Source: an uncultured Oscillospiraceae bacterium (GTDB lineage: Bacteria; Bacillota; Clostridia; UMGS1883). Taken from it: DNA of 43,522 bases. Position numbers and translations under genes: made by a program. Numbering within the stretch: the stretch's first letter is position 1; each line of letters opens with the position of its first letter. The stretch lies in contig CAZYYT010000002.1 in NCBI GenBank assembly GCA_964651775.1, positions 1 through 43,522 on the forward strand, written 5' to 3'. Below, piece by piece: positions 19,277 through 35,900 of the stretch. The notes beneath the pieces are model-generated. The model made no database searches and had not been told where the DNA came from. It worked only from the letters and a program-made list of their open reading frames with translations.

Positions 19277-19308
19277 AAAAGCCCCCTTTCCGCCCCCTTA
19301 ACTTACTT

Positions 19309-19708: not shown

Positions 19709-20059
19709 ATGAAAAATATAAAATTTTATGTGTGCCCCAAATGTGGAAATATTCTGCAAGGCACAGGCGAATTTGAGGTTTCGTGCTGTGGCAATCAGCT
19801 TCCTGCACTTGTACCAAAAACAGATACAACAAACCACGAGATTGATTCTAAAATAGTTGAAGATGATTTTTATATTACCTTTAATCACGAAATGACTAAG
19901 TCACACTACATCGGTTTTGCAGCATATGTTGGATTTGACAGGGTGCTTACTGTTAGACTGTATCCCGAGCAAGAAGCGGTTGTGCGTTTTCCAAGAATGA
20001 GTAGAGGAAAACTCTATTTATACTGCAATCAGCATGGATTAATTGAGTATAAATTATAA
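19709..20059 (+). CDS. desulfoferrodoxin-family protein (class I superoxide reductase-like)
   Basis: 116 aa. N-terminal desulforedoxin-type CPKC...CC motif. NHE..., NHEMTKSHYI and YCNQHGL match the His/Cys ligand pattern of SOR centre II. Confidence 0.65.
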   Translation: MKNIKFYVCPKCGNILQGTGEFEVSCCGNQLPALVPKTDTTNHEIDSKIVEDDFYITFNHEMTKSHYIGFAAYVGFDRVLTVRLYPEQEAVVRFPRMSRGKLYLYCNQHGLIEYKL

Positions 20060-20080
20060 GACCAGCTTCGGGGTGTGTAT

Positions 20081-20881
20081 ATGAAAACAGTTGTAATTAC
20101 CGGAAGTACGAGGGGGTTTGGGCGCGAGCTTTCAAGATGCTTTCGAAAGAAAAACTATAATGTGGTTATAAGTGGCACAAATGCCGAAAGATTAGAAAAA
20201 GCGTTAGCGGAGCTTTCATGTATTTCTTCCAAAGGTGAAATACATGCCTGTGTTTGTGATGTTAGAAAACAAAATGATGTTGAAAATCTGTATCTAACAT
20301 CAGAGAAAATATTTGGAAAGGTTGATATCTGGATAAACAACGCAGGCGTCAATCAGCGTGATGTGGCAATTATGGATTTAGAAAGTCAAGAGATTGACAC
20401 CCTCCTTGATATAGACTTAAAGGGCACCATTTACGGAAGCAAGGTTGCCTTTAAGCATATGCACAAACAAGGCAGTGGCCAAATATATAATGTTGAAGGC
20501 CATGGCTCAAACGATGCAATCATTATGGGGTTGTCACTTTATGGTACATCAAAAAGGGCTGTAACCTATTTTACCGAGGCGCTTAGTAAAGAGGCGGATT
20601 TACTTAACTCAAAAGTGTGCATCGGTAAAATATCACCCGGAATTATGAATACCAACTTTTTGACTACTGCAAACAGTGAAAGTGGCGCAATTACACTAAA
20701 CGAAAAAACCAAAAAGGTATATAATACCCTTGGTGATTACCCGCAAACCGTGGCAGAATTTATGGCCGATAAAATTGATAAAAACACAAAAAACAACGTC
20801 AAATTTAATTGGTTAACGGGCAGAAAAGCATTAACAAGATTTATGAGCGCAGGCTTTAGAAAAAGAGAGTTTTTTTCGTAA
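20081..20881 (+). CDS. SDR family oxidoreductase
   Basis: TGSTRGFG cofactor motif, NNAG and YGTSK catalytic motif. Start set at MKTVVITG. Confidence 0.85.
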   Translation: MKTVVITGSTRGFGRELSRCFRKKNYNVVISGTNAERLEKALAELSCISSKGEIHACVCDVRKQNDVENLYLTSEKIFGKVDIWINNAGVNQRDVAIMDLESQEIDTLLDIDLKGTIYGSKVAFKHMHKQGSGQIYNVEGHGSNDAIIMGLSLYGTSKRAVTYFTEALSKEADLLNSKVCIGKISPGIMNTNFLTTANSESGAITLNEKTKKVYNTLGDYPQTVAEFMADKIDKNTKNNVKFNWLTGRKALTRFMSAGFRKREFFS

Positions 20882-20996
20882 ACAGACTGCTTAAATAGCC
20901 TTAATCTAAAACTCAACCAAGCGTTTGTCCCCACCAAACGGTTGGTGTGTTTACTTTTGGCACAGGTAATCTATAATGGTATTAAGGAGGCGGAGG

Positions 20997-21602
20997 ATGA
21001 ATCAAGAAAAAATCGGCAAATTTATTGCTGAACGCAGAAAATATAAAAACATGACGCAGGCAAGCTTGGCTGAAAAGCTAAATATAACTGATAGGGCCGT
21101 ATCAAAATGGGAAAGAGGAAAAGGGATGCCTGACTCATCCATTATGCTTAACCTTTGCAGTGAGCTTGGTATTAGCGTAAACGAATTATTAAGTGGGGAG
21201 GTTATTGAAGTGGAAAATTACGATAAAAAATCAGAAGTTCTTTTGCTTGAAATGGCAAAGAAAGAAGAACAACATAACAAAAGACTTATGACTGCAATGT
21301 GGACGATTATGGCAGTAAGCATAGTAGCGCTTTTATCTGTTAACTTTCTAGTAGTATTTTTGGTTCCCGAAGGGCCACTACAGCTTCTATTTGTTATAGG
21401 GGCGGTAATTTTATTTATGATCCCTTGTTTTATAGCTTTAAAGCTTGAAACAGAAGCCGGTTTTTATGAATGCAAAAACTGTCACCATAAATTTGTTCCA
21501 GCTTATAAAGACGTTTTGTGGGCTATGCATATGGGAACAACAAGGCATTTAAAATGCCCCCATTGTCAGAAGAAAGCCTGGTGTAAAAAAGTATTAAAAT
21601 AA
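20997..21602 (+). CDS. membrane-anchored XRE-family HTH regulator with C-terminal zinc ribbon
   Basis: HTH_3-like MTQASLAEKLNITDRAVSKWERG, two hydrophobic segments, then CKNCHH...CPHCQ. Start at MNQEKIG after AAGGAGGCGGAGG. Confidence 0.78.
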   Translation: MNQEKIGKFIAERRKYKNMTQASLAEKLNITDRAVSKWERGKGMPDSSIMLNLCSELGISVNELLSGEVIEVENYDKKSEVLLLEMAKKEEQHNKRLMTAMWTIMAVSIVALLSVNFLVVFLVPEGPLQLLFVIGAVILFMIPCFIALKLETEAGFYECKNCHHKFVPAYKDVLWAMHMGTTRHLKCPHCQKKAWCKKVLK

Positions 21603-21605
21603 CTA

Positions 21606-21636
21606 TTGACTCTCCCCTTAGAGTATGCCTTAAAAT
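21606..21636 (+). promoter_or_regulatory. MerR-type promoter with 19-nt spacer and internal dyad
   Basis: TTGACT (21606-21611), 19-nt spacer containing ACTCTccccttAGAGT, TAAAAT (21631-21636). It lies directly upstream of the MerR-family gene. Confidence 0.5.
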
Positions 21637-21656
21637 CTTTTTGGGAGGTGGAAATT

Positions 21657-22457
21657 ATGTTTTCTATCGGTGAATTTTCAAAGTTGGCAAAGACTACAAT
21701 CAAGACACTACGCTTCTATGATGAAATTGATTTATTTAAGCCAAGCCACACAGAAGATAACGGTTATCGTTATTATTCTATTGATGACTTAAATAAGCTT
21801 ACAATGATTTTAGAGCTTAGGGAAATTGGTCTGTCAATAAGTGAAATTAAAAATGTACTCCTAGGGTATGACCTTGAAACCACACTTGTAAATAGGTCTG
21901 ATTCACTCAAAAAAGAAATCGAGAAAAGCCATAATGACCTGTCCCTTATAAACAATATTTTAATTCAAATAGAAAAAGGAGAGTCTATTATGGAAAAGTA
22001 TCAAGCATCGGAAATTATAGTTCCTGAAATCAAGGTTTATTACAAGCACGGCGTAATTGAAAATATGTCAAAGCTAGTTGATTTTGTTTTATCTGCAGGC
22101 AGAGAGGTAAGCGAAAACAACCCTACACTTAAGTGTGAGGGTTACTGCTATATAACCTATGAAGCGCCACAGTATCAAGAACAAAATGTGGAGCTTGAGT
22201 ATGTGGAGCAGATAACCGAATTTGGAAAAGAAAGCGAGAACATCAAATTCAAAACAGTGCCCTCCATAAAGGCAATTTCTGTTACACATAAGGGGCCATA
22301 TGATAAGCTTAGTGAGGCGTACCTTTATGCAGTAAACTTTGTAAAAGAAAAAGGATACACAATTTCAGATAAAATTCGTGAGGTTTATATCCACGGATGT
22401 TGGGATAGGGATAGTGAGGATGATTATGAAACTGAAATCCAAGTCCCTGTAAAGTAA
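21657..22457 (+). CDS. MerR family regulator with GyrI-like effector-binding domain (BmrR-like)
   Basis: MFSIGEFSKLAKTTIKTLRFYDEIDLFKP is a MerR HTH. The C-terminal roughly 150 aa are GyrI-like (ends EIQVPVK). GGGAGGTG upstream. Confidence 0.85.
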   Translation: MFSIGEFSKLAKTTIKTLRFYDEIDLFKPSHTEDNGYRYYSIDDLNKLTMILELREIGLSISEIKNVLLGYDLETTLVNRSDSLKKEIEKSHNDLSLINNILIQIEKGESIMEKYQASEIIVPEIKVYYKHGVIENMSKLVDFVLSAGREVSENNPTLKCEGYCYITYEAPQYQEQNVELEYVEQITEFGKESENIKFKTVPSIKAISVTHKGPYDKLSEAYLYAVNFVKEKGYTISDKIREVYIHGCWDRDSEDDYETEIQVPVK

Positions 22458-22469
22458 GGAGAATTTTAA

Positions 22470-23090
22470 GTGGAAAACTATATTATAAGACGCGAAACAC
22501 CGCGGGATTATCAAGAGGTTTTAAATTTGGTGCGTGAGTCATTTTGGAATGTTTACCGCCCCGGTTGTATTGAACATTATGCTCTACACATTATGAGAAG
22601 CTCAAGCGACTTTGTGAAAGAACTGGATTTTGTTATGGAGCTTGACGGTAAAATCATAGGACAAAATGTTTTTACCAAAGCACAAATCAAAGCTGATGAC
22701 GGTAAAATTATCCCTGTACTTACAATGGGGCCAATTTGTATTACTCCACAGCTAAGGGGCAAGGGTTATGGAAAAATATTACTTGATTATTCGTTGGAGA
22801 AAGCAAAAGAGTTAGGCTATGGTGCAGTATGCTTTGAAGGTAATATAGACTTTTACGGGAAAAGTGGCTTTGTTGTGGCAAGCACAATGAACATTCACTA
22901 CTATGGCGAGCCACGGGAAAACGAAGTCCCGTACTTTCTTTGCAAAGAACTGCAAAAAGGTTATCTTAAAGGTATCGAAGGGGTATTTTGCCAACCAATG
23001 GAAGTATATGTTGACGATAATGCGGCGGATGAATTTGATAAGCAGTTTCCTTATAAAGAAAAGCTTAAACTACCGGGACAACTTGTGTAA
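22470..23090 (+). CDS. GNAT family N-acetyltransferase
   Basis: 206 aa. Acetyl-CoA motif region PQLRGKGYGKILLDYSLEKAKELGY. GTG start 8 nt after AAGGAG. Confidence 0.78.
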   Translation: MENYIIRRETPRDYQEVLNLVRESFWNVYRPGCIEHYALHIMRSSSDFVKELDFVMELDGKIIGQNVFTKAQIKADDGKIIPVLTMGPICITPQLRGKGYGKILLDYSLEKAKELGYGAVCFEGNIDFYGKSGFVVASTMNIHYYGEPRENEVPYFLCKELQKGYLKGIEGVFCQPMEVYVDDNAADEFDKQFPYKEKLKLPGQLV

Positions 23091-23281
23091 AATTTAGTAT
23101 ACTTATTTACTTCTTAAGCTATATTAATAATCTAAACAGAAATGAAGATGATACTACGAAAATTTATGACATTTCTCAAGAGGTTTTTTCTTCTGTTGTT
23201 TTTGAGGGGGACCCAAAGCCTGAAGGTAAAGCAATAAAAAGAATTGAAGATGGGGCTTTATATAATCTATCTTCATTTAGT

Positions 23282-23749
23282 ATGTGTGCACATAATGGCA
23301 CCCACGTAGATGCGCCGTTTCACTTTTTAAAGGATGGGGATACTGTTGATAAAATCCCGCTTAAGCATTTTGTTGGAAATGCATATGTAGCATATCATGA
23401 TGGATATGTAAAATTAGAAGATGCTAAATTAATCCTTGAAAAAGCGCGGGCATTTGATGGCGCGGGAAAAAGAATTCTCATCAAAGGAAAAGCAGTGGTT
23501 ACGCTTGAGGCTGCAAAATTTTTTGCAAACTCAAATATACTTCTTTTAGGAAATGAGTCGCAAACGATAGGACCGGAGGACGCACCAATGGCTGTGCATA
23601 AAGCACTACTCTCTAAAAACATTGTTTTACTTGAAGGTATCAGGCTTAAAGACGTTTCTGAAGGTGCATATTTATTAAGCGCTGCCCCACTAAACCTTAA
23701 GAGGTTTGACGGGGCGCCGTGTAGGGCGGTGCTTATAGATACAAATTAA
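23282..23749 (+). CDS. cyclase family protein (arylformamidase-like); conserved N-terminus lies upstream without a start codon
   Basis: HNGTHVDAPFHF motif. The in-frame upstream sequence (from 23156) reads TKIYDISQEVFSSVVFEGDPKPEG, typical of the family N-terminus, but has no ATG/GTG/TTG. Confidence 0.6.
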   Translation: MCAHNGTHVDAPFHFLKDGDTVDKIPLKHFVGNAYVAYHDGYVKLEDAKLILEKARAFDGAGKRILIKGKAVVTLEAAKFFANSNILLLGNESQTIGPEDAPMAVHKALLSKNIVLLEGIRLKDVSEGAYLLSAAPLNLKRFDGAPCRAVLIDTN

Positions 23750-23912
23750 ATGAAGAAACTTACGCTGTATAATCATTGTGGTTAAGAATATATTGTATTA
23801 ACTAGCAACTTAAATATCACCGAGGGTAAGATTTTAAAAGTTAAACCAGCTTTAATTAAAAGAATCTCCTTGATATTTGTGTTAAAAAATTTAATAATAA
23901 GAGGGCGTTATT

Positions 23913-24554
23913 ATGAAAAAGAAAGTAGTTTTAATGACTATAATTTCATGTCTGGTGACTTTAATTCCAATGCTGGTGGGGCTTATACTTTGGGATAAAC
24001 TCCCCGAAGAGATGCCAACCAACTTTGGATTTAACGGCGAAGTTACAGGGTATAGCAGCAAATTTTTTGGAGTTGTTGGACTTCCGTTAATTTTAGTGGC
24101 AAGCAATTTGTTTTGTATTATTTTTACAATGGCAGACCCAAGGAGAAAGAATATCAGTAACACGGTTTTGGGCGTAGTTTTAACAATAATACCCATTAGC
24201 TCAATTTTTAGTTGTGTGCTTTTATACAAAGATGCTTTAGGATTTAACATAAATGTAGGCACACTTTCAACTGCATTTTTGGGTATTATCTTTATAGTAG
24301 TTGGTTTAATCCTTCCAAAATGCAAACAGAATTACACTGTTGGTATCAAGCTTCCTTGGACACTACATAGTGAAAAAAATTGGGATAAAACCCACGCATT
24401 AGGCGGTAAAGTTTGGGTGATCGGCGGTATTATCCTTACTATATTCGGTATGCTTGGTTATGAAAAAATCGTCTTTTGGGGAATATTTGTTTTGGTAGCC
24501 ATTCCAGTGGTGTATTCTTATGTATATTATAGAAAAAACGAACTCAAGAAATAA
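23913..24554 (+). CDS. SdpI/YhfL-like membrane protein (DUF1648 + SdpI family)
   Basis: 213 aa with about 6 TM segments. N-terminal LWDKLPEEMPTNFGFNGEVTGYSSK pattern typical of DUF1648. Confidence 0.7.
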   Translation: MKKKVVLMTIISCLVTLIPMLVGLILWDKLPEEMPTNFGFNGEVTGYSSKFFGVVGLPLILVASNLFCIIFTMADPRRKNISNTVLGVVLTIIPISSIFSCVLLYKDALGFNINVGTLSTAFLGIIFIVVGLILPKCKQNYTVGIKLPWTLHSEKNWDKTHALGGKVWVIGGIILTIFGMLGYEKIVFWGIFVLVAIPVVYSYVYYRKNELKK

Positions 24555-24640
24555 AATTCTTGTACCGTAAATTCACACAAACCAAAACAAGAAAATAGTA
24601 AAATAATGAGTTAAGGCGACAAAATGTTCAGGTTTGAACT

Positions 24641-24683
24641 GAGCTGTGCCAATCTGTGCAAACAGCACAAATTGGTACAGCTC
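24641..24683 (+). terminator. Rho-independent terminator candidate
   Basis: gagctgtgccaat / attggtacagctc stem (one G-U pair), followed by AATTTTTA. Confidence 0.55.
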
Positions 24684-24718
24684 AATTTTTATAGAGGTAC
24701 TTTTTTTATATAAACATA

Positions 24719-24766
24719 TTGACATTTGTTTATATGTTGTATATAATATAATACATAAACGTTTAT
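24719..24766 (+). promoter_or_regulatory. promoter plus palindromic operator candidates for the ArsR-family operon
   Basis: TTGACA (24719-24724), 17 nt, TATAAT (24742-24747). Inverted repeat AACATAT...ATATGTT overlaps the -35/spacer. Perfect 12-bp palindrome ATAAACGTTTAT at 24755-24766. Confidence 0.45.
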
Positions 24767-24784
24767 TTATGTGAGGTGAATATT

Positions 24785-25069
24785 ATGAAAGAAAGTTATA
24801 CAAAGGAAGCTACAATATTCAAGGCTTTTTGCGATGAAAACAGATTGAAGATACTTGTTCTTTTAAAAAATGGTGAAATGTGCGGTTGTAAGCTAATCGA
24901 GGCGCTAAATATTACTCAACCAAACCTTTCTCACCATATGAAAATACTTTGTGATTCAGGTGTTGTTGAAGGCAGAAAAGATGGAAAGTGGACTTATTAT
25001 AAAATCTCAGAAGAAGGCAGGGATTTTGCCATAAAACTGCTTTTTGATATTACAAAAACGGAGGTGTAA
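24785..25069 (+). CDS. ArsR/SmtB family metalloregulator
   Basis: DENRLKILVLLKNGEMCGCKLIEALNITQPNLSHHMKIL is a canonical ArsR wHTH with a CxC site. ATG at 24785 after GAGGTGA. Confidence 0.85.
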   Translation: MKESYTKEATIFKAFCDENRLKILVLLKNGEMCGCKLIEALNITQPNLSHHMKILCDSGVVEGRKDGKWTYYKISEEGRDFAIKLLFDITKTEV

Positions 25070-25070
25070 G

Positions 25071-26072
25071 ATGGCTATTTGGTCTATTATTCAAACACAG
25101 GTTTTGGGTATGGCGTGGCTTAACGGATTAATTGGGAATATGCTTTCATCGTTTGGCCTTGATATTCAAAGCAAAATAGGTGCAAGTGTACAATTCTTCT
25201 TGTATGATACCATAAAGATTATGGTGCTTCTAGGCATTTTGATTTTGATAATTTCATACATTCAAAGCTATTTCCCACCTGAGAGGACAAAAAAGATATT
25301 GGGAAGATTTAAGGGTGTTGGCGCAAATACCTTGGCAGCACTTTTAGGTACGGTAACGCCGTTTTGCTCATGTTCTTCAATTCCCCTATTTATGGGATTT
25401 ACAAGCGCAGGTCTTCCACTTGGTGTAACTTTTTCTTTTTTGATATCCTCACCAATGGTTGACTTAGGCTCTCTTGTGCTTTTGATGAGTATATTCGGTG
25501 CAAAAGTTGCTATTTCTTATGTTATTTTGGGGCTTGTTATCGCAGTTGTCGGCGGAACTTTGATTGAGAAAATGCATCTTGAAAATGAGGTTGAAGATTA
25601 TATTAAAAATGCAAGGGCGCTTGAAATCGAAGCGGAGGAGCTAAACTTTAAACAAAGGATAAAATTTGCTTGGGAAAAAGTTATAGAAACTGCAAAAAAG
25701 GTGTTTCCTTATGTCCTTGTGGGAACGCTTATTGGGGCATTTATTCATAACTGGATACCACAAGATTTCATTATAAAGCTACTTGGTAACGGAAATCCGT
25801 TCGGCGTAATAATTGCAACTATAGCAGGGGTGCCAATGTATGCAGATATTTTTGGCACAATTCCTATCGCAGAAGCTCTACTTTTAAAGGGTGCTAGTTT
25901 AGGAGTTGTACTTTCATTTATGATGGGTGTAACAACACTTTCGCTACCTTCAATGATAATGTTAAGAAAAGCAATTAAACCAAAGCTTTTAGGTATATTT
26001 GTAGCAATCTGCACCGTAGGAATTATTATCGTTGGCTATATATTTAATATGGTTCAAAATATTTTGATATAG
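25071..26072 (+). CDS. UPF0718/ArsP-like permease
   Basis: Polytopic protein. Conserved TPFCSCSSIPLF motif. Start at MAIWSIIQ after GGAGGTG. Confidence 0.78.
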   Translation: MAIWSIIQTQVLGMAWLNGLIGNMLSSFGLDIQSKIGASVQFFLYDTIKIMVLLGILILIISYIQSYFPPERTKKILGRFKGVGANTLAALLGTVTPFCSCSSIPLFMGFTSAGLPLGVTFSFLISSPMVDLGSLVLLMSIFGAKVAISYVILGLVIAVVGGTLIEKMHLENEVEDYIKNARALEIEAEELNFKQRIKFAWEKVIETAKKVFPYVLVGTLIGAFIHNWIPQDFIIKLLGNGNPFGVIIATIAGVPMYADIFGTIPIAEALLLKGASLGVVLSFMMGVTTLSLPSMIMLRKAIKPKLLGIFVAICTVGIIIVGYIFNMVQNILI

Positions 26073-26084
26073 GAGGATTTTAAA

Positions 26085-26438
26085 ATGGGAGTATTTAATG
26101 TTATTAAAAAAAAGAAAAAAGAGACTTGCTGCAGCTGTAAATGTGAGGGGAGTATTACCCCCACAGAAAATGTTTGCTGTGGCGAAAATACAGATGGAAT
26201 CTGCTGTATTAAGGTGCTTGGTTCAGGGTGTAAATCCTGTCATGAGCAGTTTGAAAATGTAAAAGAAGCGGTGAAAAATCTTGGTTTAAATATAGAAGTA
26301 GAATATATAACCGATATGGAAAAGGTTATGAGCTACGGCGTAACAAGTATGCCTGCAATTGTAGTTAATGATAGTGTTGCCGTGATGGGTAAAGTGCTTA
26401 AAGCCAAAGACGTTGAAAAACTTTTGAGTAAATTTTAA
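26085..26438 (+). CDS. thioredoxin-fold protein (redox-active disulfide protein 2-like) with Cys-rich N-terminal extension
   Basis: C-terminal roughly 77 aa KVLGSGCKSCHEQF...MPAIVVND...GK fit the small glutaredoxin-like family. The N-terminal roughly 40 aa contain 8 Cys. Confidence 0.72.
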   Translation: MGVFNVIKKKKKETCCSCKCEGSITPTENVCCGENTDGICCIKVLGSGCKSCHEQFENVKEAVKNLGLNIEVEYITDMEKVMSYGVTSMPAIVVNDSVAVMGKVLKAKDVEKLLSKF

Positions 26439-26576
26439 TGGGGTTAACAAGGAATTTTCTATAATATCGGGGAAAATCATCCCATTAAAAACAATTAGGT
26501 TTTAGCGCCCCTCAAAAAGTCAAGAAATAGTGAAAAGTAGCACGGTCAAACTAGAATCATATACTGTAATGAGGAG

Positions 26577-27017
26577 ATGATTCATGTGCCATGTAACAAA
26601 AATAATAATATTATAGACATGGGCAAAAAACCTTATGTTACAAATATAAAAAATCAAGCAATGTCTAACACTGCTTTTCGCGCTGCCCTTTGGACAGGAG
26701 AATATCTTCAGACAACCTTAATGAGTATTAGGCCCGGTGGAGATATTGGTGTAGAAATGCATCCAAATACAGATCAATGTATTATGGTTGCCGGTGGACG
26801 CGGTATGGCTAGCACCGGTGATAGTAAGGATAGATTCACATATAGCAAAAAAATAAGTGTTGACGATGCTATATATATTCCTGCGGGAACCTGGCATAAT
26901 ATTACAAATGTAGGAAATCGCCCATTAAAATTAATTTCATTTTATGCCCCTCCTAATCACCCGCGTGGAACGTATCAAGCTTCAAAAGCAGATGCGAAAA
27001 GATCTGAATATCACTAA
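26577..27017 (+). CDS. cupin domain protein (start uncertain)
   Basis: GVEMHPNTDQCIMVAGGRG...IYIPAGTWHNITN is a two-motif cupin signature. The GAGGAG abuts the first ATG, so the true start may be the GTG at 26586 or the ATG at 26619. Confidence 0.68.
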   Translation: MIHVPCNKNNNIIDMGKKPYVTNIKNQAMSNTAFRAALWTGEYLQTTLMSIRPGGDIGVEMHPNTDQCIMVAGGRGMASTGDSKDRFTYSKKISVDDAIYIPAGTWHNITNVGNRPLKLISFYAPPNHPRGTYQASKADAKRSEYH

Positions 27018-27042
27018 AATTCATACTACTCACTTTCTTAAA

Positions 27043-27125
27043 AAGACGGTTACAAGCCCACATCCACATAAAAAAGCAGTGTCCTAGTAACCTGCCTTTT
27101 GTGGTCATGGGATTGTAATCGTCTT
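27043..27125 (+). terminator. long imperfect hairpin followed by a T-tract (terminator or structured RNA)
   Basis: aagacggttaca...cccacatccacataaaa pairs with ttttgtggtcatggg...tgtaatcgtctt, followed by ATTTTGTTTG. Confidence 0.45.
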
Positions 27126-27207
27126 ATTTTGTTTGCTTCCAATTCCCTTTTAAAACCGGTATAAAATCTGCTACTTATGGAGATAAATATAATTTATTCG
27201 CTAATAA

Positions 27208-27236
27208 TTGACAATTTAGTTTATTTGTGTTACCAT
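27208..27236 (+). promoter_or_regulatory. promoter candidate for the purine permease gene
   Basis: TTGACA (27208-27213), 17 nt, TACCAT (27231-27236) with an upstream TGT. Confidence 0.4.
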
Positions 27237-27279
27237 CTTCAAGTAGTTTTATTATATATCAAAGATAAGGGGATGTGTT

Positions 27280-28626
27280 ATGTTTAAATTAAAGGAAAAT
27301 GGTACAACAATTTCAACAGAAATTATCGCAGGCCTTACAACATTTTTCGCTATGTCATACATTATTATTGTAAATCCAAGCATTTTGGCACAGTCTGGAA
27401 TGGAATGGGGCGCAGTATTTCTTGCAACCATCATTTCATCAATCGTAGGAACGTTAGTTATGGGACTTGTAGCTAATGTACCTTACGCACAAGCCCCGGG
27501 CATGGGTCTGAATGCATTTTTTGTTTTTACTGTTTGTTTTACGCTAAAGTTTACATGGCAACAAGCATTATCCATGGTATTTATCTGTGGACTTATTAAT
27601 ATTTTTATCACAGTAACAAAAATTCGTAAGTATATTATCAAATCAATTCCACTAAGCCTTCAAAATGCAATTGGTGGCGGAATAGGTATTTTCGTAGCAT
27701 ACATTGGTTTTTTAAATGTTGGAATCATTAATTTTGGCTCAGGCGTTCCTGCACTTTCAGTGTTAAATCAGCCTGTATTTTGGGTATTTTTAATTGGTTT
27801 GTTAATTACATTTGTCTTGCTTGTTCTTAATGTAAAAGGTGCAATATTAATTTCAATTATTGCAACTACTATTATTGGAATACCTTTTGGTGTTACTCAG
27901 TTACAAGAAACAACAAGCTTTACACAGGCATGCAGCGTTCTACCAACAACATTTTTTGCTATTTTTAAAGAAGGTGGCATTACAAGCTTGTTTACAGACC
28001 TAACCAAGCTTCCTCTTGTTTTATTAACAATTTTTGCGTTTAGTATTTCTGATACGTTTGATACAATCGGAACATTTATAGGAACGGGCCGTCAAACAGG
28101 TATCTTTAGTGAAGAAGATGAGTCACTTATGGAAAGCGGATCCGGCTTTAAGTCAAAGCTTGATAAGGCTCTCTTTGCCGATGCAACAGCGACTTCAATC
28201 GGTGCTTTGTTTGGCACATCAAACACTACCACATTCGTTGAAAGTGCTGCAGGCATTGGCGTAGGTGGTCGTACAGGACTTACATCAGTTGTTGTTTCAA
28301 TTTGCTTTGCATTGTCAGCATTTTTAGCAACATTCGTAAGTGCCGTTCCTTTTGCTGCTACAGCACCTGCTTTAATCGCTGTTGGTATTATGATGACTTC
28401 TTCATTCAAGTGCATTGATTGGAGCGACTTTAATGAAGCTATTCCGGCATTCTTTGCAGGCATATTTATGGCTCTTTGCTACAGCATTTCTTATGGTATT
28501 GCAGCAGGCTTCATATTCTATATAATTACAAAGGTATGTACAGGTAAAATAAAAGAAATTAATCCTGTTTTATGGGTTTGTTCCGGTTTATTTATACTTA
28601 ACTTTGTATTACTTGCAATAATATAA
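27280..28626 (+). CDS. NCS2/AzgA-family purine (adenine/guanine/hypoxanthine) permease
   Basis: 448 aa. N-terminus FKLKENGTTISTEIIAGLTTFFAMSYIIIVNPSIL is typical of PbuG/AzgA-type permeases. Confidence 0.83.
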   Translation: MFKLKENGTTISTEIIAGLTTFFAMSYIIIVNPSILAQSGMEWGAVFLATIISSIVGTLVMGLVANVPYAQAPGMGLNAFFVFTVCFTLKFTWQQALSMVFICGLINIFITVTKIRKYIIKSIPLSLQNAIGGGIGIFVAYIGFLNVGIINFGSGVPALSVLNQPVFWVFLIGLLITFVLLVLNVKGAILISIIATTIIGIPFGVTQLQETTSFTQACSVLPTTFFAIFKEGGITSLFTDLTKLPLVLLTIFAFSISDTFDTIGTFIGTGRQTGIFSEEDESLMESGSGFKSKLDKALFADATATSIGALFGTSNTTTFVESAAGIGVGGRTGLTSVVVSICFALSAFLATFVSAVPFAATAPALIAVGIMMTSSFKCIDWSDFNEAIPAFFAGIFMALCYSISYGIAAGFIFYIITKVCTGKIKEINPVLWVCSGLFILNFVLLAII

Positions 28627-28650
28627 CAAAATTTAAAAAAGCACCTTTGA
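28497..28650 (+). repeat. direct repeat copy 1 (permease 3-prime end plus first terminator arm)
   Basis: 136-nt core 28497-28632 matches 31761-31896 with 3 mismatches. After a diverged 7-8 nt stretch, agcacctttga is shared again. Confidence 0.85.
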
Positions 28651-28904
28651 AACTGAACCGACCCCCAAAAGTTAGACCAAAAATCTTACGATTGGGAGGC
28701 CGGTTTTTACATGGCAAAAAAATAGCTTTGGATAATCTTGCTAAGGGTAAACTTGTCGAAGCAAGTGAGTTGAATCTCAATGTGACAAATGCCGCCAAAG
28801 TGAAATATATACTTTAAAACGACGATAATAAAACGCTTTATCCAATTACAGCAAGTACTGTAAAATAAAACAAATTTGTTAATTAAAAATTTTCGCAGCT
28901 TGTG

Positions 28905-29690
28905 CTATTGTTTGCTCACATACTTTGATGGAGCCTTGCCAATATACTGCTTAAATATACGACTGAAATAATAGATTGAATCAAATCCAAGTTCAGAAGA
29001 GATTTCTCCAATAGAGCGGTCTGTCTCTCGTAACAGGAGGCAGGCCCTTTGTATTCTCAGACTGTTGCGGTAATAGATGGGTGTTTTGCCGGTTTCTTTT
29101 TTAAAAAGCCGATAAAGATGTGTTTCGCTTAAAAAACATAATTCTGCCAGCTCCAATGCGGATATATCTTCGGTATAATGGTTGTTGATATAATCGATTG
29201 CGGGCATAATGCGATTTTCGGAGGTTGATTTAAGAAGCTGATAAAGCTCTGCCAGCATATCGTAAAAAAGAGCCATTGCATGGAAGCTGGCATCAGGGAT
29301 AGAAAGAATGTCGGATAGTTTTTTTGCGTCTTTCATAAATATAGTGCCGACTTTGTCAGCAATAGGCAAGGGGAGTCGTGAAAATAATATGGGCTCCATA
29401 TCATTCATATCTGTAATAGTAAAGCTTATACGAAAAAAGGAGAAGCTTTCGGTTGAGACTGTCAGATGATGCTTGGAGTGCAGCGGAAGATATATAAGTG
29501 TGTGTGGACCAAACTCGAAACTGCCACCCTCCCAATTATATCTGCCTATGCCCTTATCAATCAGTAAAAAACCATTAACATTTCGGTTTTCTACAGTCAT
29601 ATTCCTGTAGGACGGAGTTTGATATATAGCGGTAAGTCCATGCAGTGCGAAATCAGTTTTGTGCAAATCCTGAAATTTAATAATTTTCAT
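28905..29690 (-). CDS. AraC family transcriptional regulator
   Basis: C-terminal dual HTH (ELAELCFLSETHLYRLFKKETGKTP...IGEISSELGFDSIYYFSRIFKQYIGKAPS) and an N-terminal cupin-like sensor. Start set at MKIIKFQ. Confidence 0.83.
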   Translation of the reverse strand: MKIIKFQDLHKTDFALHGLTAIYQTPSYRNMTVENRNVNGFLLIDKGIGRYNWEGGSFEFGPHTLIYLPLHSKHHLTVSTESFSFFRISFTITDMNDMEPILFSRLPLPIADKVGTIFMKDAKKLSDILSIPDASFHAMALFYDMLAELYQLLKSTSENRIMPAIDYINNHYTEDISALELAELCFLSETHLYRLFKKETGKTPIYYRNSLRIQRACLLLRETDRSIGEISSELGFDSIYYFSRIFKQYIGKAPSKYVSKQ

Positions 29691-29858
29691 ATGTAATTCA
29701 TCTCCTGCATTTATATAGGAAATTAACTGCAACTATATTATACGATTTTTTGGAACAAACGTCAAGTACATGTTAGAATAGTTTAAATATCTGTTGTTTT
29801 TATGTATTTGCTTTTAACTTATCTGATAGTATAATTTGAGAAAAGGAGGATGTGATTT

Positions 29859-30044
29859 ATGAAGGTCTATTACAAAGTTGGTGGTGGCTGTGTATTGTGT
29901 CTGGGATGTGTATATGAATGTCCTGTCGGTGCAATTTCTGTAAAAGAGAATATTTCGGCAATTATAGACAAGGAACGCTGTTTGGGTTGTGGCAAGTGCT
30001 GTGACAGCTGTCAGGCTGAGGCAATAATCAAAGTAGAAGAATAA
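29859..30044 (+). CDS. 4Fe-4S dicluster ferredoxin
   Basis: 61 aa with two Cys clusters, CVLCLGCVYECP and CLGCGKCCDSC. AAAGGAGG upstream. Confidence 0.8.
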   Translation: MKVYYKVGGGCVLCLGCVYECPVGAISVKENISAIIDKERCLGCGKCCDSCQAEAIIKVEE

Positions 30045-30057
30045 TAGGAGGATAAAT

Positions 30058-31563
30058 ATGATTACTTTAAATCGGGAAGCAAATTCGATTATCAGAGAAG
30101 ATGAACTAATTCCAATATACGGAGACTATGATGTTGTAGTTGTAGGAGGAGGGATGGCAGGCGTTGGTGCAGCTCTGGCAGCGTCAAAAGCCGGTGCAAA
30201 AACCATCTTGATTGAAAACACTTCAGGACTTGGTGGTATTGCGTCCTTTGGCTTGGTGCCGATTCCTCTGGACTTTGTTTCCGGTCTCGGACAGGAATTT
30301 TTTGACGAAATGAAAAAGGTAGACGGAATCAGAAAGAGAAACACCGATCCGGAAAAGCATAAGCTGATATTTGACCGTATGATGAAAAAGTACGGAGCGG
30401 AAACCTTGCTTGTTACACCTTTGATAGATACTATTGTTGAAGGTAACGCGGTAAAGGGAATTGTTATTCACACCAAGCAGGGCAAAAAAGCAATAATGGG
30501 TAAGCGCTTTGTAGATGCTTCCGGTGATTCTGATTTGGTATTTTTTGCCGGAGGAGAAACACAGTCAGGACGTCCAGAAGATGGCATATCCATGGGCTGC
30601 TCATTGGATTTTGTTATGGGCGGTGTGGATTTTGATAAGTATCTGGAGAGTGATATTAGAAATAATGACCCCAAGTGGATAAAGACAATTTCCGATGCGT
30701 TAAAAAGCGGAGAATTGCCCTACGAGATAGACAATCATGTAAACTGGATTACGCATATTCCGGGACGTCCGGAGAATTGCGGTATGGATGAGGTTTGTAT
30801 TTGCATAGCGCATTCTAGGAGCTGCTATCCAACCGATAATAATGATTTAACCCGTATGTATATTGAGGGACGTGAACAGGCGGCAATCATGACAGATTTT
30901 ATCCGCAATCATATACCGGGCTTTGAAAAAGCGTATCTTAGCTATACGGGCAGTTTGTTAGGTGTAAGAGAGAGTCGCCGTATTGTTGGAGAGTATGCAT
31001 TTACCGGTATGGACATTGCTTATGCAAGGAAACAGGAGGATGTTATTGCAATAAGCCAGCACGGTTTTGATTTGCACGGAGGCAATCTTAAATGGTTTAA
31101 AGGACAACTGCCGGATGGCAGAGAGGCTTATATAGCCAACCGCGCCGGATGGGGAACGCAACTTCCGCCGGATGATGATTTGCCAAGGATAAATATGGCG
31201 GAGCTTGCGCCTGATGGAGAATTCTGGTATGACATTCCATACAGATCCTTGATTCCGATTAGACTGGAAAACGTTTTGGCAGCAGGAAGAAACATTTCAT
31301 CTGATGTGCCCGGACAGTCCGGCACAAGACTGGTTATGTGCTGTATGGCTCTTGGAGAAGCGGCAGGTACAGCAGCTGCACTTTCTATTAAGGATAACCT
31401 GTCTCCGCGCAAATTGGATGTAACGAGGCTACAAAGAACACTGGCTGAGAACAATGTAAACATCGGTCAGAGATTCAGAGAGATAGCTGCGTTTAAGGGC
31501 TATAAGACAAGTGAAAATACATTTGATGTCACTTTCAAAGGATCTAGTCAAGGCAATGGCTGA
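30058..31563 (+). CDS. FAD-dependent oxidoreductase (PF12831-like)
   Basis: DVVVVGGGMAGVGAALAASKAGAKTILIE dinucleotide-binding motif. 501 aa. Translationally close to the ferredoxin gene. Confidence 0.8.
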   Translation: MITLNREANSIIREDELIPIYGDYDVVVVGGGMAGVGAALAASKAGAKTILIENTSGLGGIASFGLVPIPLDFVSGLGQEFFDEMKKVDGIRKRNTDPEKHKLIFDRMMKKYGAETLLVTPLIDTIVEGNAVKGIVIHTKQGKKAIMGKRFVDASGDSDLVFFAGGETQSGRPEDGISMGCSLDFVMGGVDFDKYLESDIRNNDPKWIKTISDALKSGELPYEIDNHVNWITHIPGRPENCGMDEVCICIAHSRSCYPTDNNDLTRMYIEGREQAAIMTDFIRNHIPGFEKAYLSYTGSLLGVRESRRIVGEYAFTGMDIAYARKQEDVIAISQHGFDLHGGNLKWFKGQLPDGREAYIANRAGWGTQLPPDDDLPRINMAELAPDGEFWYDIPYRSLIPIRLENVLAAGRNISSDVPGQSGTRLVMCCMALGEAAGTAAALSIKDNLSPRKLDVTRLQRTLAENNVNIGQRFREIAAFKGYKTSENTFDVTFKGSSQGNG

Positions 31564-31654
31564 TATGAGAAAATTGTGTTATAATACCATGGCATATAAA
31601 GTATCGAAAAAGTGGTTGTAGCAAAATAGCAGCTAAAATAAGTTTCGAAAAGAA

Positions 31655-31692
31655 AAAAGCGGACGATTGCAGTAGCAAAAGTTCGCTTTTTT
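31655..31692 (+). terminator. weak terminator candidate after the oxidoreductase gene
   Basis: aaaagcggac / gttcgctttt stem (one G-U pair) followed by TT. Confidence 0.35.
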
Positions 31693-31760
31693 AGTTATAA
31701 TCGAATTGACATAAAACCATTAAACCAAGGAGATTATACCACAAGGCATATGCTTGTTGA

Positions 31761-31890
31761 TATTGCAGCAGGTTTCATATTCTATATAATTACAAAGGTA
31801 TGTACAGGTAAAATAAAAGAAATTAATCCTGTTTTATGGGTTTGTTCCGGTTTATTTATACTTAACTTTGTATTACTTGCATTGATATAA
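31761..31890 (+). pseudogene. orphan 3-prime remnant of an NCS2 purine permease gene (last ~42 codons)
   Basis: Reads IAAGFIFYIITKVCTGKIKEINPVLWVCSGLFILNFVLLALI*, against ...LLAII* at the end of 27280-28626. No credible upstream coding sequence or RBS. Confidence 0.8.
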
Positions 31891-31915
31891 CAAAATAAAA
31901 ACCAAGCACCTTTGA
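31761..31915 (+). repeat. direct repeat copy 2 (orphan permease 3-prime end plus intact terminator start)
   Basis: See copy 1. The offset between copies is exactly 3264 nt. Confidence 0.85.
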
Positions 31916-31931
31916 GAAATCAAAGGTGCTT
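31904..31931. terminator. bidirectional Rho-independent terminator
   Basis: aagcacctttga / tcaaaggtgctt 12-bp perfect stem with a GAAA loop and T-runs on both strands. It lies between the permease remnant and the convergent MATE gene. Confidence 0.72.
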
Positions 31932-31970
31932 TTCTTATGCAAAATTATATTTACCAAAGCTAATTTAACC

Positions 31971-33338
31971 TTAATTGTCAGTTAGTTCTTGACTCTCCTC
32001 GGATTTACCCATGCTCTTTTTTAAAATCACCACAAGAAACAAAATGCCAAGTGCGAGTGTGATTGTATCTGATATAGGCTGTGCCCAAATAAGGCCCTCA
32101 AATCCTGACAGCTTCTTCATTAAGAATAAAAGTGGAATATAGAAAAGTCCTTGTCTAGCGGTGGATAGTACAAGTGCTTCTTTTGCTTTGCCAAAGGCTT
32201 GAATACCGGTAGTCGCAAGCATCTGTGGACCTAATACAATAAAGCTGAAAATACTTATGCGAAAAACTAACTTGCCGGCATCTATAACGTCGGGAAGCTT
32301 TGTGAAGATGCCCACAAAATTTGGCGCAAGCACCCAAAAAATTGCCATTAGCAAAACGCCTATTGAAAATGTCATAATCATACCGGTTTTAAATACGGAG
32401 CGCACCCTCTTATAATTACCGGCTCCGTAGTTGTATCCAATCAGCGGTTGACAACCCGCAGCAAATCCCATAAACACAAAAGTGCCAATAAACATCATCT
32501 TAGATGAGATGCCCATTCCTGCTTTTAATACATCGTTATCACCGACTAAATTATTAAGAATAATCATAGCAACACTAAGTAAAAATTGGCTAATACATGC
32601 AGGCACACCAATGGTGAAAATTTCCTTCCAAATGGTAGAATTTCTGCTGATGAAGTTTAATTTTATCTTTAAAAGTGCTTTACCCGATAGATAGTAGTAA
32701 GCATAGTAGACAAGCGCCCCCAAATTACCTAATACAGTAGCAAGCGCCGCACCACCAATACCCATATCAAATGTAAAGATAAAAAGTGGGTCTAATACGA
32801 CATTAATAACTGTTCCAATCAGCATACCGGTAATCGATGGCATCATCGCACCTTCTGCACGAAGAAGTTGACCGCCTGCATAGTTTAGCATAACGGGGAT
32901 AGATCCCAAAAGCATTATAGAAACATAGTTGTACGCATAAGGGTAAACATCTGATGATGCACCAAGCCCTGTAATAAGGGGCTTAATAACTGCCATACCC
33001 GCTATCATCACAATAATTGCAAGTATTGTACATATCATAACGCCTGTTGTAAGTGTGCGGTTTGCACTATCACTGTCTTTTCTGCCTATACATCGTGAAA
33101 TATATGATGCCGCACCAGTTGAAACGATGGTGGCTATGGCCATTTGTATCATAAAAACCGGTGTGGTAATACTTGCAGCAGCAAGCTGGTTTTTGTCTTG
33201 CAGCATACCGATGAAGAAGGTGTCTACCAAATTATAAAGCACTTGCACCATCATTCCGCATACAACGGGAATTGATAGTTTAAGTATTGCTTTAATGATT
33301 GGTGCCTTTCCCATCAGCTCAATTTGTTTATTTTCCAT
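31971..33338 (-). CDS. MATE family efflux transporter
   Basis: 455 aa, 12-TM pattern. N-terminus LKLSIPVVCGMMVQVLYNLVDTFFIG is typical of MatE. Confidence 0.85.
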   Translation of the reverse strand: MENKQIELMGKAPIIKAILKLSIPVVCGMMVQVLYNLVDTFFIGMLQDKNQLAAASITTPVFMIQMAIATIVSTGAASYISRCIGRKDSDSANRTLTTGVMICTILAIIVMIAGMAVIKPLITGLGASSDVYPYAYNYVSIMLLGSIPVMLNYAGGQLLRAEGAMMPSITGMLIGTVINVVLDPLFIFTFDMGIGGAALATVLGNLGALVYYAYYYLSGKALLKIKLNFISRNSTIWKEIFTIGVPACISQFLLSVAMIILNNLVGDNDVLKAGMGISSKMMFIGTFVFMGFAAGCQPLIGYNYGAGNYKRVRSVFKTGMIMTFSIGVLLMAIFWVLAPNFVGIFTKLPDVIDAGKLVFRISIFSFIVLGPQMLATTGIQAFGKAKEALVLSTARQGLFYIPLLFLMKKLSGFEGLIWAQPISDTITLALGILFLVVILKKSMGKSEESQELTDN

Positions 33339-33547
33339 TTACGCTTATACCTCCATATGTTTTGTAAAAACATCACAATTGTTGAAAAGTCAACAGTGAG
33401 AATTATAACATTTTTAATATAAGGTGTCAAGCAAATTAGTATTATGTATATTTACATTCAATTGAATATTTATAATATATAAAGAAAAAACATGAATATA
33501 ATATAGATAAGATGACATTAATATATAAAATTATAGGAGGGAAAAAA

Positions 33548-34417
33548 ATGAAAGAGAAGCTCAAGGGTTTGGTTATTGGCTTGGCAATAGGCTTAACTAT
33601 TACTACAACAGCGGTTTTAGCATCTAACGGGTCAGTCCTAAAGGAACTGAAGTACAATAACATTAAAATTAGTCTTAATAATAAAACAATTACACCTAAA
33701 GATGCAAACGGCAAATATGTAGAGCCATTTACCATAGATGGTACAACATATCTACCTGTTAGGGCCGTAGCAGACGCGGTTGGCGTAAATGTAGACTGGG
33801 ATGATCGCACAAATACTGTTGTTTTATCAAATAAAAAGGTACAAAATAATACTACTGATTTTGATAGTACCAATGTCAAAAACGGTATTAAAGTTGTAAA
33901 AGAATATACATGGAAAACAGACTACTCCAGTTATGTTGCTATAGTTGTGAGAAACGAATCCCCGTGGTCTGTTGCTCCAAGCGTACAGATTTCATACAAA
34001 GACAAAAATGGCACCGTAGTTGGCACTGATAACAAAACCGAAAATCCCTTTGGTCCGGGAAGTGAAATGGCAATTGTTTTCAGCAGTAAAGAGGATTTTG
34101 AAACAGCTGATTACATTTTATCTGCCAGCGAAGAGAAAGATTTTAGTGAGTGTATTTCAATGCTGGAAACTAAAGTAACTACAACGCCGGAAAAAGCTAT
34201 AATTCAAGTTACAAATAATGGTGATGATTTAGCCTATTTTGTAAAATATACAGTATTATTTAAAAATGGAGACAATGTTGTTGGTTATGGTACGGGATAT
34301 TTCGACGAATACGATTCCGGAATCAAACCAGGCTCGACAACAATCAGCGAAAAACAAGTATTCGGGAAAAAGTATGACTCTGTTGAGGTATATCTCACAG
34401 GAAGATCAGGGAAATAG
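33548..34417 (+). CDS. membrane-anchored or secreted protein with copper amine oxidase N-terminal-like domain
   Basis: MKEKLKGLVIGLAIGLTITTTAVLA signal/anchor. GKYVEPFTIDGTTYLPVRAVADAVGVNVDWDDRTNTVVL matches the Cu_amine_oxidN1 stalk motif. The C-terminal roughly 200 aa are unassigned. Confidence 0.68.
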   Translation: MKEKLKGLVIGLAIGLTITTTAVLASNGSVLKELKYNNIKISLNNKTITPKDANGKYVEPFTIDGTTYLPVRAVADAVGVNVDWDDRTNTVVLSNKKVQNNTTDFDSTNVKNGIKVVKEYTWKTDYSSYVAIVVRNESPWSVAPSVQISYKDKNGTVVGTDNKTENPFGPGSEMAIVFSSKEDFETADYILSASEEKDFSECISMLETKVTTTPEKAIIQVTNNGDDLAYFVKYTVLFKNGDNVVGYGTGYFDEYDSGIKPGSTTISEKQVFGKKYDSVEVYLTGRSGK

Positions 34418-34434
34418 ATTGTTTTATAAAAGTA

Positions 34435-34493
34435 GCAGTGGCTGATATGTACCTCCAAAAGCATCTAACTTTTGGGTTCACTTCAGCCACTGC
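34435..34493 (+). terminator. long-loop hairpin terminator candidate
   Basis: gcagtggctga / tcagccactgc 11-bp stem enclosing an inner ccaaaag/cttttgg stem, followed by CTTTTTCC. Confidence 0.45.
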
Positions 34494-34598
34494 TGCCTTT
34501 TTCCTTTATAATAAATAAATCTTGTCCAAAACCTTATTGGTAGGATGTGAAGATAAGCTTACTATGTACTTGTGGCGCTTGGCACACATATAAGTAAA

Positions 34599-35900
34599 TT
34601 ACCACATGGTTAGGGCTTGCTTTCCGCAGGCGTTACATTTTTTGAAGGGCTTATCAAGATTATATGCGATGCGGGGTAAATAGCCCGAGTCCTCCAAAAG
34701 AGTGAAAAGCGGGAAAAATATAGCCATTGGTGGAAGCATAACCGAAACAACCCACCCTAAAACGCGGTACATTCCCGATATAAGTGCACCTGATAGCCAC
34801 TCTGGGGCGCTTAAAAATTCAAAAATAGCGTAAAGCTTAATCTCAATATAATTAAATGCTTTACTAAGTAACTGCGAAGGGTAGTTTGCACCCTCAAGCG
34901 TTATCCAAAAAGTTAATAGTAAAAGTAAGACCATCAGCGGATATCCAAAGGCTTTGCTTGTAAGAATTCGGTCAATTTTTCTGTCACGCCCGTTATACAT
35001 GCCTTTATTTTCAGTCACAACAGATATAGATATGGCTTCAGCAGTGATTACTGTTGATATAGCTATATCATCTTTAATTTTGTTTTTATCGTATCCCTTT
35101 TGGTTAAGCACGGAAATTGCATTTTCAACCGATAGCCTAAGTGCTTCATCTTCAAATGGGTTATTCCCTAAAAAGCTTTCTATTTCATTTTTTAGTGATT
35201 CATTAATATCAAGCAGCTTTATACTAAGCCACCTTGCATCAAGTCTTTCCCCTGCCACTTTTTTTGCATAAGGGATTATAGACTCTATTGCTTCTTCTAT
35301 ATCATCACTATATTTTACTTTATAGCACACAGCATCAGATTCTGTTACACAGTCCACTGCATCCATAAGCGAGTCAAGGCTTTTTTTCTTATGCGCAATT
35401 GTGCATACAACACGTGCCCCCAGCTTTTTTTCTAAAAGCTTTGTATTAACCCTTATCCCCTTACGCTTTGCCTCATCCATCAAATTCAGGCATATAACAG
35501 CGCGCTTATTTGTTTCAAGCGTTTGTAAAACAAGATTTAAGTTCCTTTCAAGGCAGGTGGCATCGCATACAATAACTACTGCATCACAAGTACCGAAGCA
35601 GATGAAATTTCTTGCTATTTCCTCCTCGACAGAATGCGCCATTAGTGAATATGTACCGGGGATATCCACAAGCACATAGGAATTTCTATGTGTGGTGGTG
35701 TACCCCTGCGCATTAGCAACCGTTTTTCCGGGCCAATTACCCGTATGCTGATTCATCCCCGTAAGAGCGTTAAAAACTGTGCTTTTTCCAACGTTTGGAT
35801 TACCCGCTAGCGCAATAACCTTATCGTTTGGAGTTTGCTTTTTTATAACAAGGGCAGCGTCTCTAACACTTGCCCCCGTTGAGCTTTTGGTAAGCCCCAT
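34599..35900 (-). pseudogene. feoB 5-prime fragment (G-domain, helical domain and first TM segments of an interrupted gene)
   Basis: G1 GNPNVGKST, G3 DIPGTYSL and G4 NLMD. Ends ...CGKQALTMW*, with only the last codon and the stop contributed by element DNA. Confidence 0.85.
34603..34610. repeat. right junction core (attR/attL crossover region)
   Basis: CACATGGT is identical to 17587-17594 and sits exactly at the feoB break point. Confidence 0.8.

Follow-up and report, generated by a model that had tools for sequence, protein, structure and literature searches.

In Escherichia coli, single crossovers with circularised molecules left duplications of the homologous segment, 109-950 bp long, in 56 of 60 recombinants (PMC3240628), and true homology-facilitated illegitimate recombination (HFIR) was predicted to yield deletions (PMC3240628). 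Prophage e14 of E. coli K-12 has icd on one side and the C-terminal pseudogene icdC on the other (PMC13626634; Hill et al. 1989 therein). Type VI secretion system (T6SS) effector/immunity and Rhs arrays grow from one homologous anchor and one illegitimate joint (PMC5361080). Here we describe a related arrangement in 43,522 nucleotides of DNA from an uncultured Oscillospiraceae bacterium (GenBank assembly GCA_964651775.1, contig CAZYYT010000002.1, positions 1 to 43,522), a stretch that we refer to as the window. In it, an intact purine permease gene is followed by an insert of 3.26 kb, with genes for an AraC-family regulator, a ferredoxin and a flavin adenine dinucleotide (FAD)-dependent oxidoreductase, and then by a second copy of the permease 3' end. 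We propose, with a probability of about one half, that the insert is a non-autonomous foreign patch that came in through a single homologous crossover within the 3' end of the permease gene, together with one illegitimate joint, by Campbell-type integration or an equivalent event. The structure is best read as an ordinary homology-guided insertion scar with insertion sequence (IS) debris, and not as a new kind of mobile element.

The locus resembles Campbell integration, as known from suicide plasmids and lacZ-end duplications (PMC3240628), in that the insert lies between direct repeats of the homologous segment, of which the upstream one makes up the end of the intact gene and the downstream one is a 5'-truncated fragment, in that no recombinase of the element is needed and in that reversion is possible by recombination between the repeats. 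It differs in that the circle is a proposed one, in that the homology is short (155 nt, 108 of them identical) and comes from a diverged allele, and in that an IS insertion later altered one border of the repeat. As with e14, the target stays intact through a slightly different incoming 3' end, the original 3' end is a relic at the far side, and excision would recombine the two copies; e14, however, is a 15-kb prophage that uses a short core and a site-specific integrase of its own, whereas the insert described here is a 3-kb metabolic unit with IS debris and no integrase. As in T6SS effector/immunity and Rhs arrays, the ancestral 3' end was displaced and kept as an orphan, but the displaced ends of those arrays are divergent toxin tips with immunity genes, whereas here the end is near-identical and the cargo is unrelated to the anchor (PMC5361080). 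Since the E. coli duplications arose via circles, precedent favours the circle variant for a duplication.

Repeat of the permease 3' end

The permease gene (27280-28626, forward strand) encodes an intact 448-aa protein of the NCS2/xanthine-uracil family (PF00860, Xan_ur_permease, E=4e-43), and its open reading frame (ORF) is uninterrupted up to the stop codon at 28626. The last 43 codons, the stop codon, the 3' untranslated region (UTR) and the left arm of a terminator make up repeat copy 1 (28497-28651, forward strand), which matches repeat copy 2 (31761-31916, forward strand) over ~155 nt at 95-96% identity, with find_repeats, MAFFT, BLAST and global alignment in agreement. The left limits vary by method, 28494 or 28497 for copy 1 and 31758 or 31761 for copy 2, and the start-to-start offset is 3264 nt. 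This is the single long direct repeat in the region when the window is compared with itself, and no further copy exists in the 2.2-Mb, 252-contig assembly. A match of such length and identity cannot be chance. An earlier note on this DNA, made from the sequence alone, had reported the repeat, and its coordinates, counts and offset agree with our self-comparison; its 136-nt core with three mismatches is exact, and the self-alignment, which the note had set beforehand as a potential refutation, gave a similarity as long and strong as first claimed.

Copy 2 is a displaced permease 3' end. Its homology starts abruptly at codon ~406, the in-frame translation upstream of it is unrelated to the permease, and it runs into an intact intrinsic terminator (31904-31931) with a 12-bp stem and a fold of -18.1 kcal/mol. 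This hairpin scores as a terminator on both strands and is therefore common to the permease gene, ancestrally, and to the convergent gene for a MATE efflux transporter (31971-33338, reverse strand; PF01554; TIGR00797 at 207.7 bits, cut-off 147.4). Alignment and terminator scoring both confirmed that copy 2 has the complete hairpin and that copy 1 ends in the loop, as had been noted earlier.

The coding parts of the two copies differ by three substitutions (28509 C/T, 28618 A/T and 28620 A/G), and the 3' UTR and loop differ at 28634 (T/A), by a 1-nt indel at 28632, by a 2-nt CC indel before AAGCACC and by one loop base. The longest run of identity is 108 nt (28510-28617; p=0.001). The differences are clustered, with one in the first 121 aligned columns and seven in the last 37 (max-chi-square permutation p=0.005). 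Because copy 2 is non-functional, decay would be expected evenly along the repeat, so constraint does not explain the clustering, which points to two permease alleles joined by crossover or gene conversion and not to a fresh local duplication. The crossover may have taken place near 28617, in which case both copies would be the resident allele upstream of this point and two alleles ~19% apart downstream of it. Alternatively, gene conversion may have homogenised the interior after two diverged alleles had been joined. Either way, the 3' parts of the copies stem from different alleles, one with and one without an IS3-family insertion.

Insertion sequence remnants at the inner borders

Copy 1 gives way in the terminator loop to the left-end stump of an IS3-family element (28653-28722, forward strand), which begins with TG and comprises the left inverted repeat (IRL), an internal hairpin, a GGGAGG Shine-Dalgarno sequence and the ATG of orfA, followed by MAKK and a stop codon. 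The stump is 96% identical over 55 nt to a copy at the end of another contig, C6, of the same genome. When this genome and 40 relatives were searched, a piece of ~55-70 nt (28654-28720) was recovered in many genomes, often at contig ends. In register, the IS3-type copies start with TGAACCGACCCCCAAAAGTTAGACC, fold back and continue with GGGAGG, a T-run and ATG. The ATG after the same left end opens orfA (MAKYSYEFK...) in loci L009, L010 and L209-L212, and the same architecture is found in 832 plasmid records in a search of an annotated collection. A copy from Enterococcus faecium (L185) has a 193-aa orfA and an orfB whose product matches NF033516 (IS3 family transposase) at 232.9 bits, above the cut-off of 160; by its appearance we take this element to be a candidate IS150-like one. 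The right end of the element was taken from a decayed copy (L014). Full copies elsewhere have the TG-starting terminal inverted repeats and orfA/orfB DDE transposase of the IS3 family; in the window the left ~70 nt alone are present, with no right inverted repeat (IRR), orfA or orfB. Two contigs of the same genome, C6 and C130, terminate in the left and right ends of the IS3-type element; it is therefore active in this genome or was so until recently. The element and a 54-bp IRL-IRR miniature derivative are present in 29 of 87 genomes of the order.

The IS3-type element and its miniature preferentially occupy the loops of Rho-independent terminators. After in silico removal of the insertion, a stem of at least 8 bp brackets nine of 17 solo copies, usually followed by a T-run, compared with 0.8% of 5100 random positions from the same loci (p=5e-15), and folding of the rebuilt solo sites with RNAfold added three sites whose loops are asymmetric. 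In the window, the sequence to the left of the stump forms 15 bp with the sequence into which copy 2 continues. Solo and miniature copies include L004, L005, L201, L208, L214, L216, L217, L219, L221, L223-L225 and others, and such an insertion converts a ~30-nt terminator into a ~90-nt compound hairpin. The IS3-family elements IS1397 and ISKpn1, which insert in repetitive extragenic palindromic (REP) and other palindromic units (PMC1525189), likewise have a strong preference for an extragenic hairpin loop region. In contrast to them, the element described here targets no REP family but single Rho-independent terminators that are unrelated in sequence, and it has a 54-bp miniature.

We thus attribute the break of copy 1 in the loop to insertion of the IS3-family element in the terminator, and not to a recombination end point. 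Copy 1 owes its right-hand limit to this insertion, so the repeat may once have reached further. The hairpin and T-run of the stump now probably end permease transcription. The earlier note had described an unassigned stretch of 250 bp between copy 1 and the cargo genes. Its first part is the IS3-family left end and so no longer unassigned, whereas the remainder (28723-28904), which reaches to the AraC stop codon, did stay without similarity in our searches: neither IS element (IS3 or IS1182) gave a match, nor did the remainder of the genome, the loci with related cargo or the 87 genomes of the order, and a start-less 31-codon frame in it, ending at 28815-28817, had no match among 1.84 billion representative proteins.

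At the other border, a second IS stump, absent from the earlier note, directly precedes copy 2. It is the left end of an IS1182-family element (31607-31744, forward strand), with the terminal repeat AAAGTGGTTGTAGCAAAA, a hairpin at ~31655-31690, the -10 box TATAAT and the ribosome-binding site (RBS) AAGGAG. The stump retains element positions ~2-131 and is cut just ahead of the transposase start; over 138-140 nt it is 76% identical to the left end of a 1.82-kb element from same-genus genomes. A search of the 87 genomes of the order with 31560-31765 returned matches of 71-85% in 15 other genomes, several per genome, and the aligned copies have in common a terminal AAAGGGGCTGTAGCAAAA, an internal hairpin, TGGTATAAT, AAGGAG and ATG. 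Full copies from two same-genus genomes are 1.82 kb long, with 18-bp terminal inverted repeats and a 511-aa transposase whose match to NF033551 (IS1182 family transposase) reaches 364.2 bits, above the cut-off of 270. In the window only the left ~138 nt are present, and the genome itself holds no IS1182 right end, transposase or second copy. Several genomes of the genus have copies of the element, among them L197 (G086:C2, reverse complement 343-2161), L199 and, internally deleted and ~0.9 kb long, L198; solo left-end stumps occur elsewhere too (L194 and L196), and the element carries a strong internal promoter/RBS cassette.

Between this stump and copy 2 lies a filler of 16 nt (31745-31760). 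Comparison with the full element excluded it as an IS1182 right end or interior piece, neither of which fits, and an ATG-to-ATT alignment with the transposase start was rejected, the similarity being too weak. Since the joint lies inside the IS (position ~135 of 1820) and is followed by 16 non-IS bases, it is an illegitimate join or a deletion end point and not an IS terminus. With IS stumps at both inner borders, the DNA must have passed through IS-rich contexts, and we regard the joints as secondary deletions or illegitimate joins and not as products of transposition. The filler also begins a 46-codon frame (31750-31890, MLVDIAAGFIFY...ALI and a stop codon), whose ATG, at 31750, comes just after the IS1182-derived -10 box and AAGGAG. 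The frame is fused in frame to the displaced permease tail, including the last hydrophobic helix of the permease, and could be expressed as a small membrane peptide.

The cargo genes

The DNA between the two repeat copies is 3.1 kb long, and AraC, Fer4 and FAD_oxidored were the only Pfam matches among all ORFs of the insert. The gene for the AraC-family regulator (28905-29732, reverse strand; PF00165, PF12833) is divergent from those for a 61-aa 2x[4Fe-4S] ferredoxin (29859-30044, forward strand; Fer4 family matches, with NF058577 FdxA_fam at 38.5 bits, below its cut-off) and for the FAD-dependent oxidoreductase (30058-31563, forward strand; PF12831, E=5e-90). The match of the latter to solved structures and curated families is confined to its FAD-binding N-terminus. 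Its nearest relatives, 84% and 82% identical, come from loci with the same divergent trio layout and unrelated neighbours. One locus, L182, aligned with the window at 75% nucleotide identity over exactly 28906-31510, and the layout also occurs at L180 and, in another family of the order, at L008, both in unrelated neighbourhoods. On one side the homology goes no further than the AraC stop codon, on the other no further than the oxidoreductase gene, and both flanks in the window are unique. The search for the trio in other contexts that the earlier note suggested thus turned up a conserved unit in unrelated surroundings, and on these comparisons the trio is a conserved portable unit. The G+C content of the insert is 0.38-0.43, compared with 0.33-0.37 around it, and composition gives no clear separation. 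The trio copy at L180 (6199-9518) has an IS110-family transposase gene (DEDD_Tnp_IS110) between the ferredoxin and oxidoreductase genes as well as two tandem AraC genes, and adjoins genes for SLH/heparinase-like surface proteins.

Proposed mechanism of insertion

An intact gene, an insert and a 5'-truncated gene end running into the original terminator are what a single homologous crossover leaves behind when a circular molecule bearing a fragment of its target integrates. In the window, the insert lies between direct repeats of a segment of the permease gene; the upstream one supplies the end of the intact gene, and the downstream one, a truncated fragment, leads on into the original DNA. From the repeat, the two IS stumps, the modular trio and the clustered differences we infer an order of events, a circular intermediate and host RecA as the agent of the crossover. 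The trio would have acquired IS3-family and IS1182-family elements elsewhere, of which dead left ends remain. The incoming DNA would have brought a slightly different permease 3' end with the IS3 element already in its terminator loop, and its simplest source would be a linear fragment of a related locus that ran from the permease tail through half a terminator, IS3 and the trio to the 5' end of IS1182. This fragment would have circularised and integrated by a single Campbell crossover, or else entered by an equivalent event with one homologous and one illegitimate end; the illegitimate joint would lie at 31744-31761. As an outcome, the permease frame would have stayed intact and come to end in the incoming 3' UTR, half terminator and IS3 hairpin, and the resident 3' end with its bidirectional terminator would have been moved 3264 nt downstream as a relic. 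An element-encoded recombinase would have played no part. All viable models require the illegitimate joint (31744-31761), IS3 insertion in the permease terminator loop, IS3 truncation (28722/28723) and homology in the permease tail.

Campbell-type integration was among the proposals of the earlier note. The topology supports it, with the correction that the right limit of copy 1 was set by the IS3 element, and with the addition of the overlooked IS1182 stump. Compared with HFIR, the joint at 31744-31761 is illegitimate and the other falls within homology, but recipient DNA has been duplicated, whereas HFIR usually deletes it. The clustering of differences suits a crossover near 28617 as in HFIR, and also gene conversion. 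The 108-nt identical run should allow occasional RecA-dependent loop-out of the insert, restoring the order permease-terminator-MATE.

Several points weigh against entry by crossover and illegitimate joint. A simple Campbell event between uniformly diverged alleles predicts evenly spread differences, and the clustering needs near-identical coding parts, a boundary crossover of the HFIR kind or later gene conversion. The scheme also involves several extra steps (IS3 insertion, IS3 truncation and IS1182 truncation). Neither a strain-level relative nor an empty site, a donor locus, a sister island or a circular form turned up in the collections searched, and the closest relatives lack synteny. 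In a search of 5.8 billion proteins the best identities were 87% for the permease and 84% for the FAD oxidoreductase, the closest relatives of the MATE transporter and of a serine recombinase encoded upstream in the window reached 83% and 30%, and exact-protein look-ups of the permease and MATE transporter gave no match. Drawn from 185,579 species genomes, 80 loci with a permease gene and 80 with a MATE gene showed no shared synteny, and no metagenome contig matched a degenerate DNA pattern written for the permease tail specific to this lineage. In addition, the assembly is fragmented, incomplete and of metagenome type (2.2 Mb, 252 contigs, 83% complete), and the 108-nt exact repeat leaves room for another traversal of the assembly graph, as an empty site plus a 3264-bp circle.

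The surrounding island

The module had been described in the earlier note as nested, and this description holds. A large serine recombinase (17636-19276; Resolvase, Recombinase, Zn_ribbon_recom and DUF4368 domains) lies beside a C-terminal fragment of FeoB, with an N-terminal FeoB fragment at 34599-35900, so that the repeat structure sits inside an island of ~17 kb that splits feoB. In silico removal of 17587-34602 gives a continuous FeoB of 707 aa. The 8-bp CACATGGT occurs at both island ends (17587-17594 and 34603-34610), and removing the island together with one 8-mer restores the FeoB frame.

Alternative explanations

The repeat could be the remains of a paralogue, with two complete permeases once flanking the trio, a single deletion from inside IS1182 to codon ~406 leaving copy 2, and gene conversion maintaining the identical core. 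The joint before copy 2, at position ~135 of 1820 in the IS and with 16 filler bases, does resemble a deletion with arbitrary ends, and the clustered differences are compatible with gene conversion between the repeats. We nevertheless consider this history unlikely. A prior event that placed near-identical permeases 3 kb apart would still be required, most simply the same insertion with a longer fragment, so that the model adds a step and removes none, and neither the promoter nor the 5' region of a second permease gene has left any trace.

An assembly artefact would mean that the permease, terminator and MATE gene are in truth uninterrupted, and that a separate molecule or strain, with the order IS1182 stump-permease tail-IS3 stump-trio, was threaded through the 108-nt run. 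The 252 contigs, the completeness of 83%, the single data set behind the contig and an exact core longer than some assembler k-mers all leave space for such an error. It is improbable, since both novel joints (half terminator/IS3 and IS1182 stump/permease codon 406) must be real DNA under either traversal, no alternative repeat-bearing contig is found in the bin, and assemblers normally break at unresolved repeats instead of joining across them. With both joints physically real, IS-bordered cargo would still be linked to a 3' fragment of the permease gene, and the biology would be unchanged.

It would be a long shot to see in the 3264-bp unit of permease tail, IS3 stump, trio and IS1182 stump a recombinase-free "homology cassette" that moves recurrently. 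Were this the case, the unit would form a circle via its 108-nt repeats and re-enter by RecA-dependent single crossover at any cell's copy of the conserved permease gene; the conserved gene end would then serve as a portable attachment site, and the target would never be inactivated.

The IS ends at both inner borders might suggest a direct product of transposition: the border ISs would, for example, have formed a transposon, compound or one-ended, and the repeat would be its target duplication, though an unusually long one. This is very improbable. The stumps belong to different families, each is a left end, they point the same way, neither has a transposase gene or a right end, and non-IS bases intervene between the IS1182 stump and copy 2. 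Neither the same IS twice nor a short target duplication, as expected of a compound transposon, is present. The repeat copies differ, whereas target duplications are identical when formed, and we know of no target duplication of the IS3 or IS1182 families that approaches 155 nt. We therefore agree with the earlier note that the repeats are too long for transposon target duplications.

The earlier note's second proposal, a gene-cassette-like replacement, fails for want of a recombinase, an attC-like site or a target duplication, and the border ISs are of different families. The repeat consists of coding sequence and a terminator arm, no IntI-type protein was found among the window ORFs scanned, and an inverted-repeat search detected no attC-like site at the borders. 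Least probable of all is site-specific integration of the e14/icd or integron-cassette type at the permease 3' end, with the element supplying the replacement end: for all the formal resemblance to e14 between icd and icdC (PMC13626634) and the serine recombinase in the surrounding island, Pfam reveals no integrase in any ORF of the insert, the island recombinase is 9 kb off at an island end and the island ends have an unrelated 8-bp core in common, no attC-like or dyad site marks the repeat borders, one of which is an IS insertion and the other an illegitimate joint, and the same insert borders recur at none of the 80 permease loci.

Implications

If it did enter by a homologous crossover and an illegitimate joint, the insert would be a natural example of cargo added to a small integrative island without a dedicated recombinase, with a conserved stretch of a gene as the landing pad. 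The target gene survives such an event and the old gene end persists as a datable relic. That later IS activity has set the apparent limits of the repeat cautions against equating repeat borders with recombination end points. The practical effects are predicted to be modest, namely loss of the trio at some rate via the repeats and a permease termination reliant on the IS-derived hairpin. The most reusable by-product is the terminator-loop-targeting IS3 element with its 54-bp miniature, and IS elements in terminator loops can lengthen or split terminators and seed rearrangements of this type.

Relatives of the permease

The window contains no tRNA, and an Rfam scan of it detected no RNA family, including no purine riboswitch ahead of the permease gene. 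Permease relatives with 78-87% identity were found in metagenome-assembled genomes of gut Firmicutes labelled Lachnospiraceae, Oscillospiraceae, Erysipelotrichaceae, Bacilli and Anaeroplasmataceae (L019-L098), each time in a different neighbourhood. This spread across families reflects either unusually strong conservation or frequent transfer. One relative, P0002, which combined a high score with 74% identity, was considered as a mosaic and rejected, since it has an internal tandem duplication of 47 aa and comes from an unrelated locus. It is 498 aa long (L179, 10001-11497, on a contig of GCA_029782595.1), and its exact 47-residue duplication (KALFADATATS...VVVAIC) is either a real event within the gene or an assembly artefact.

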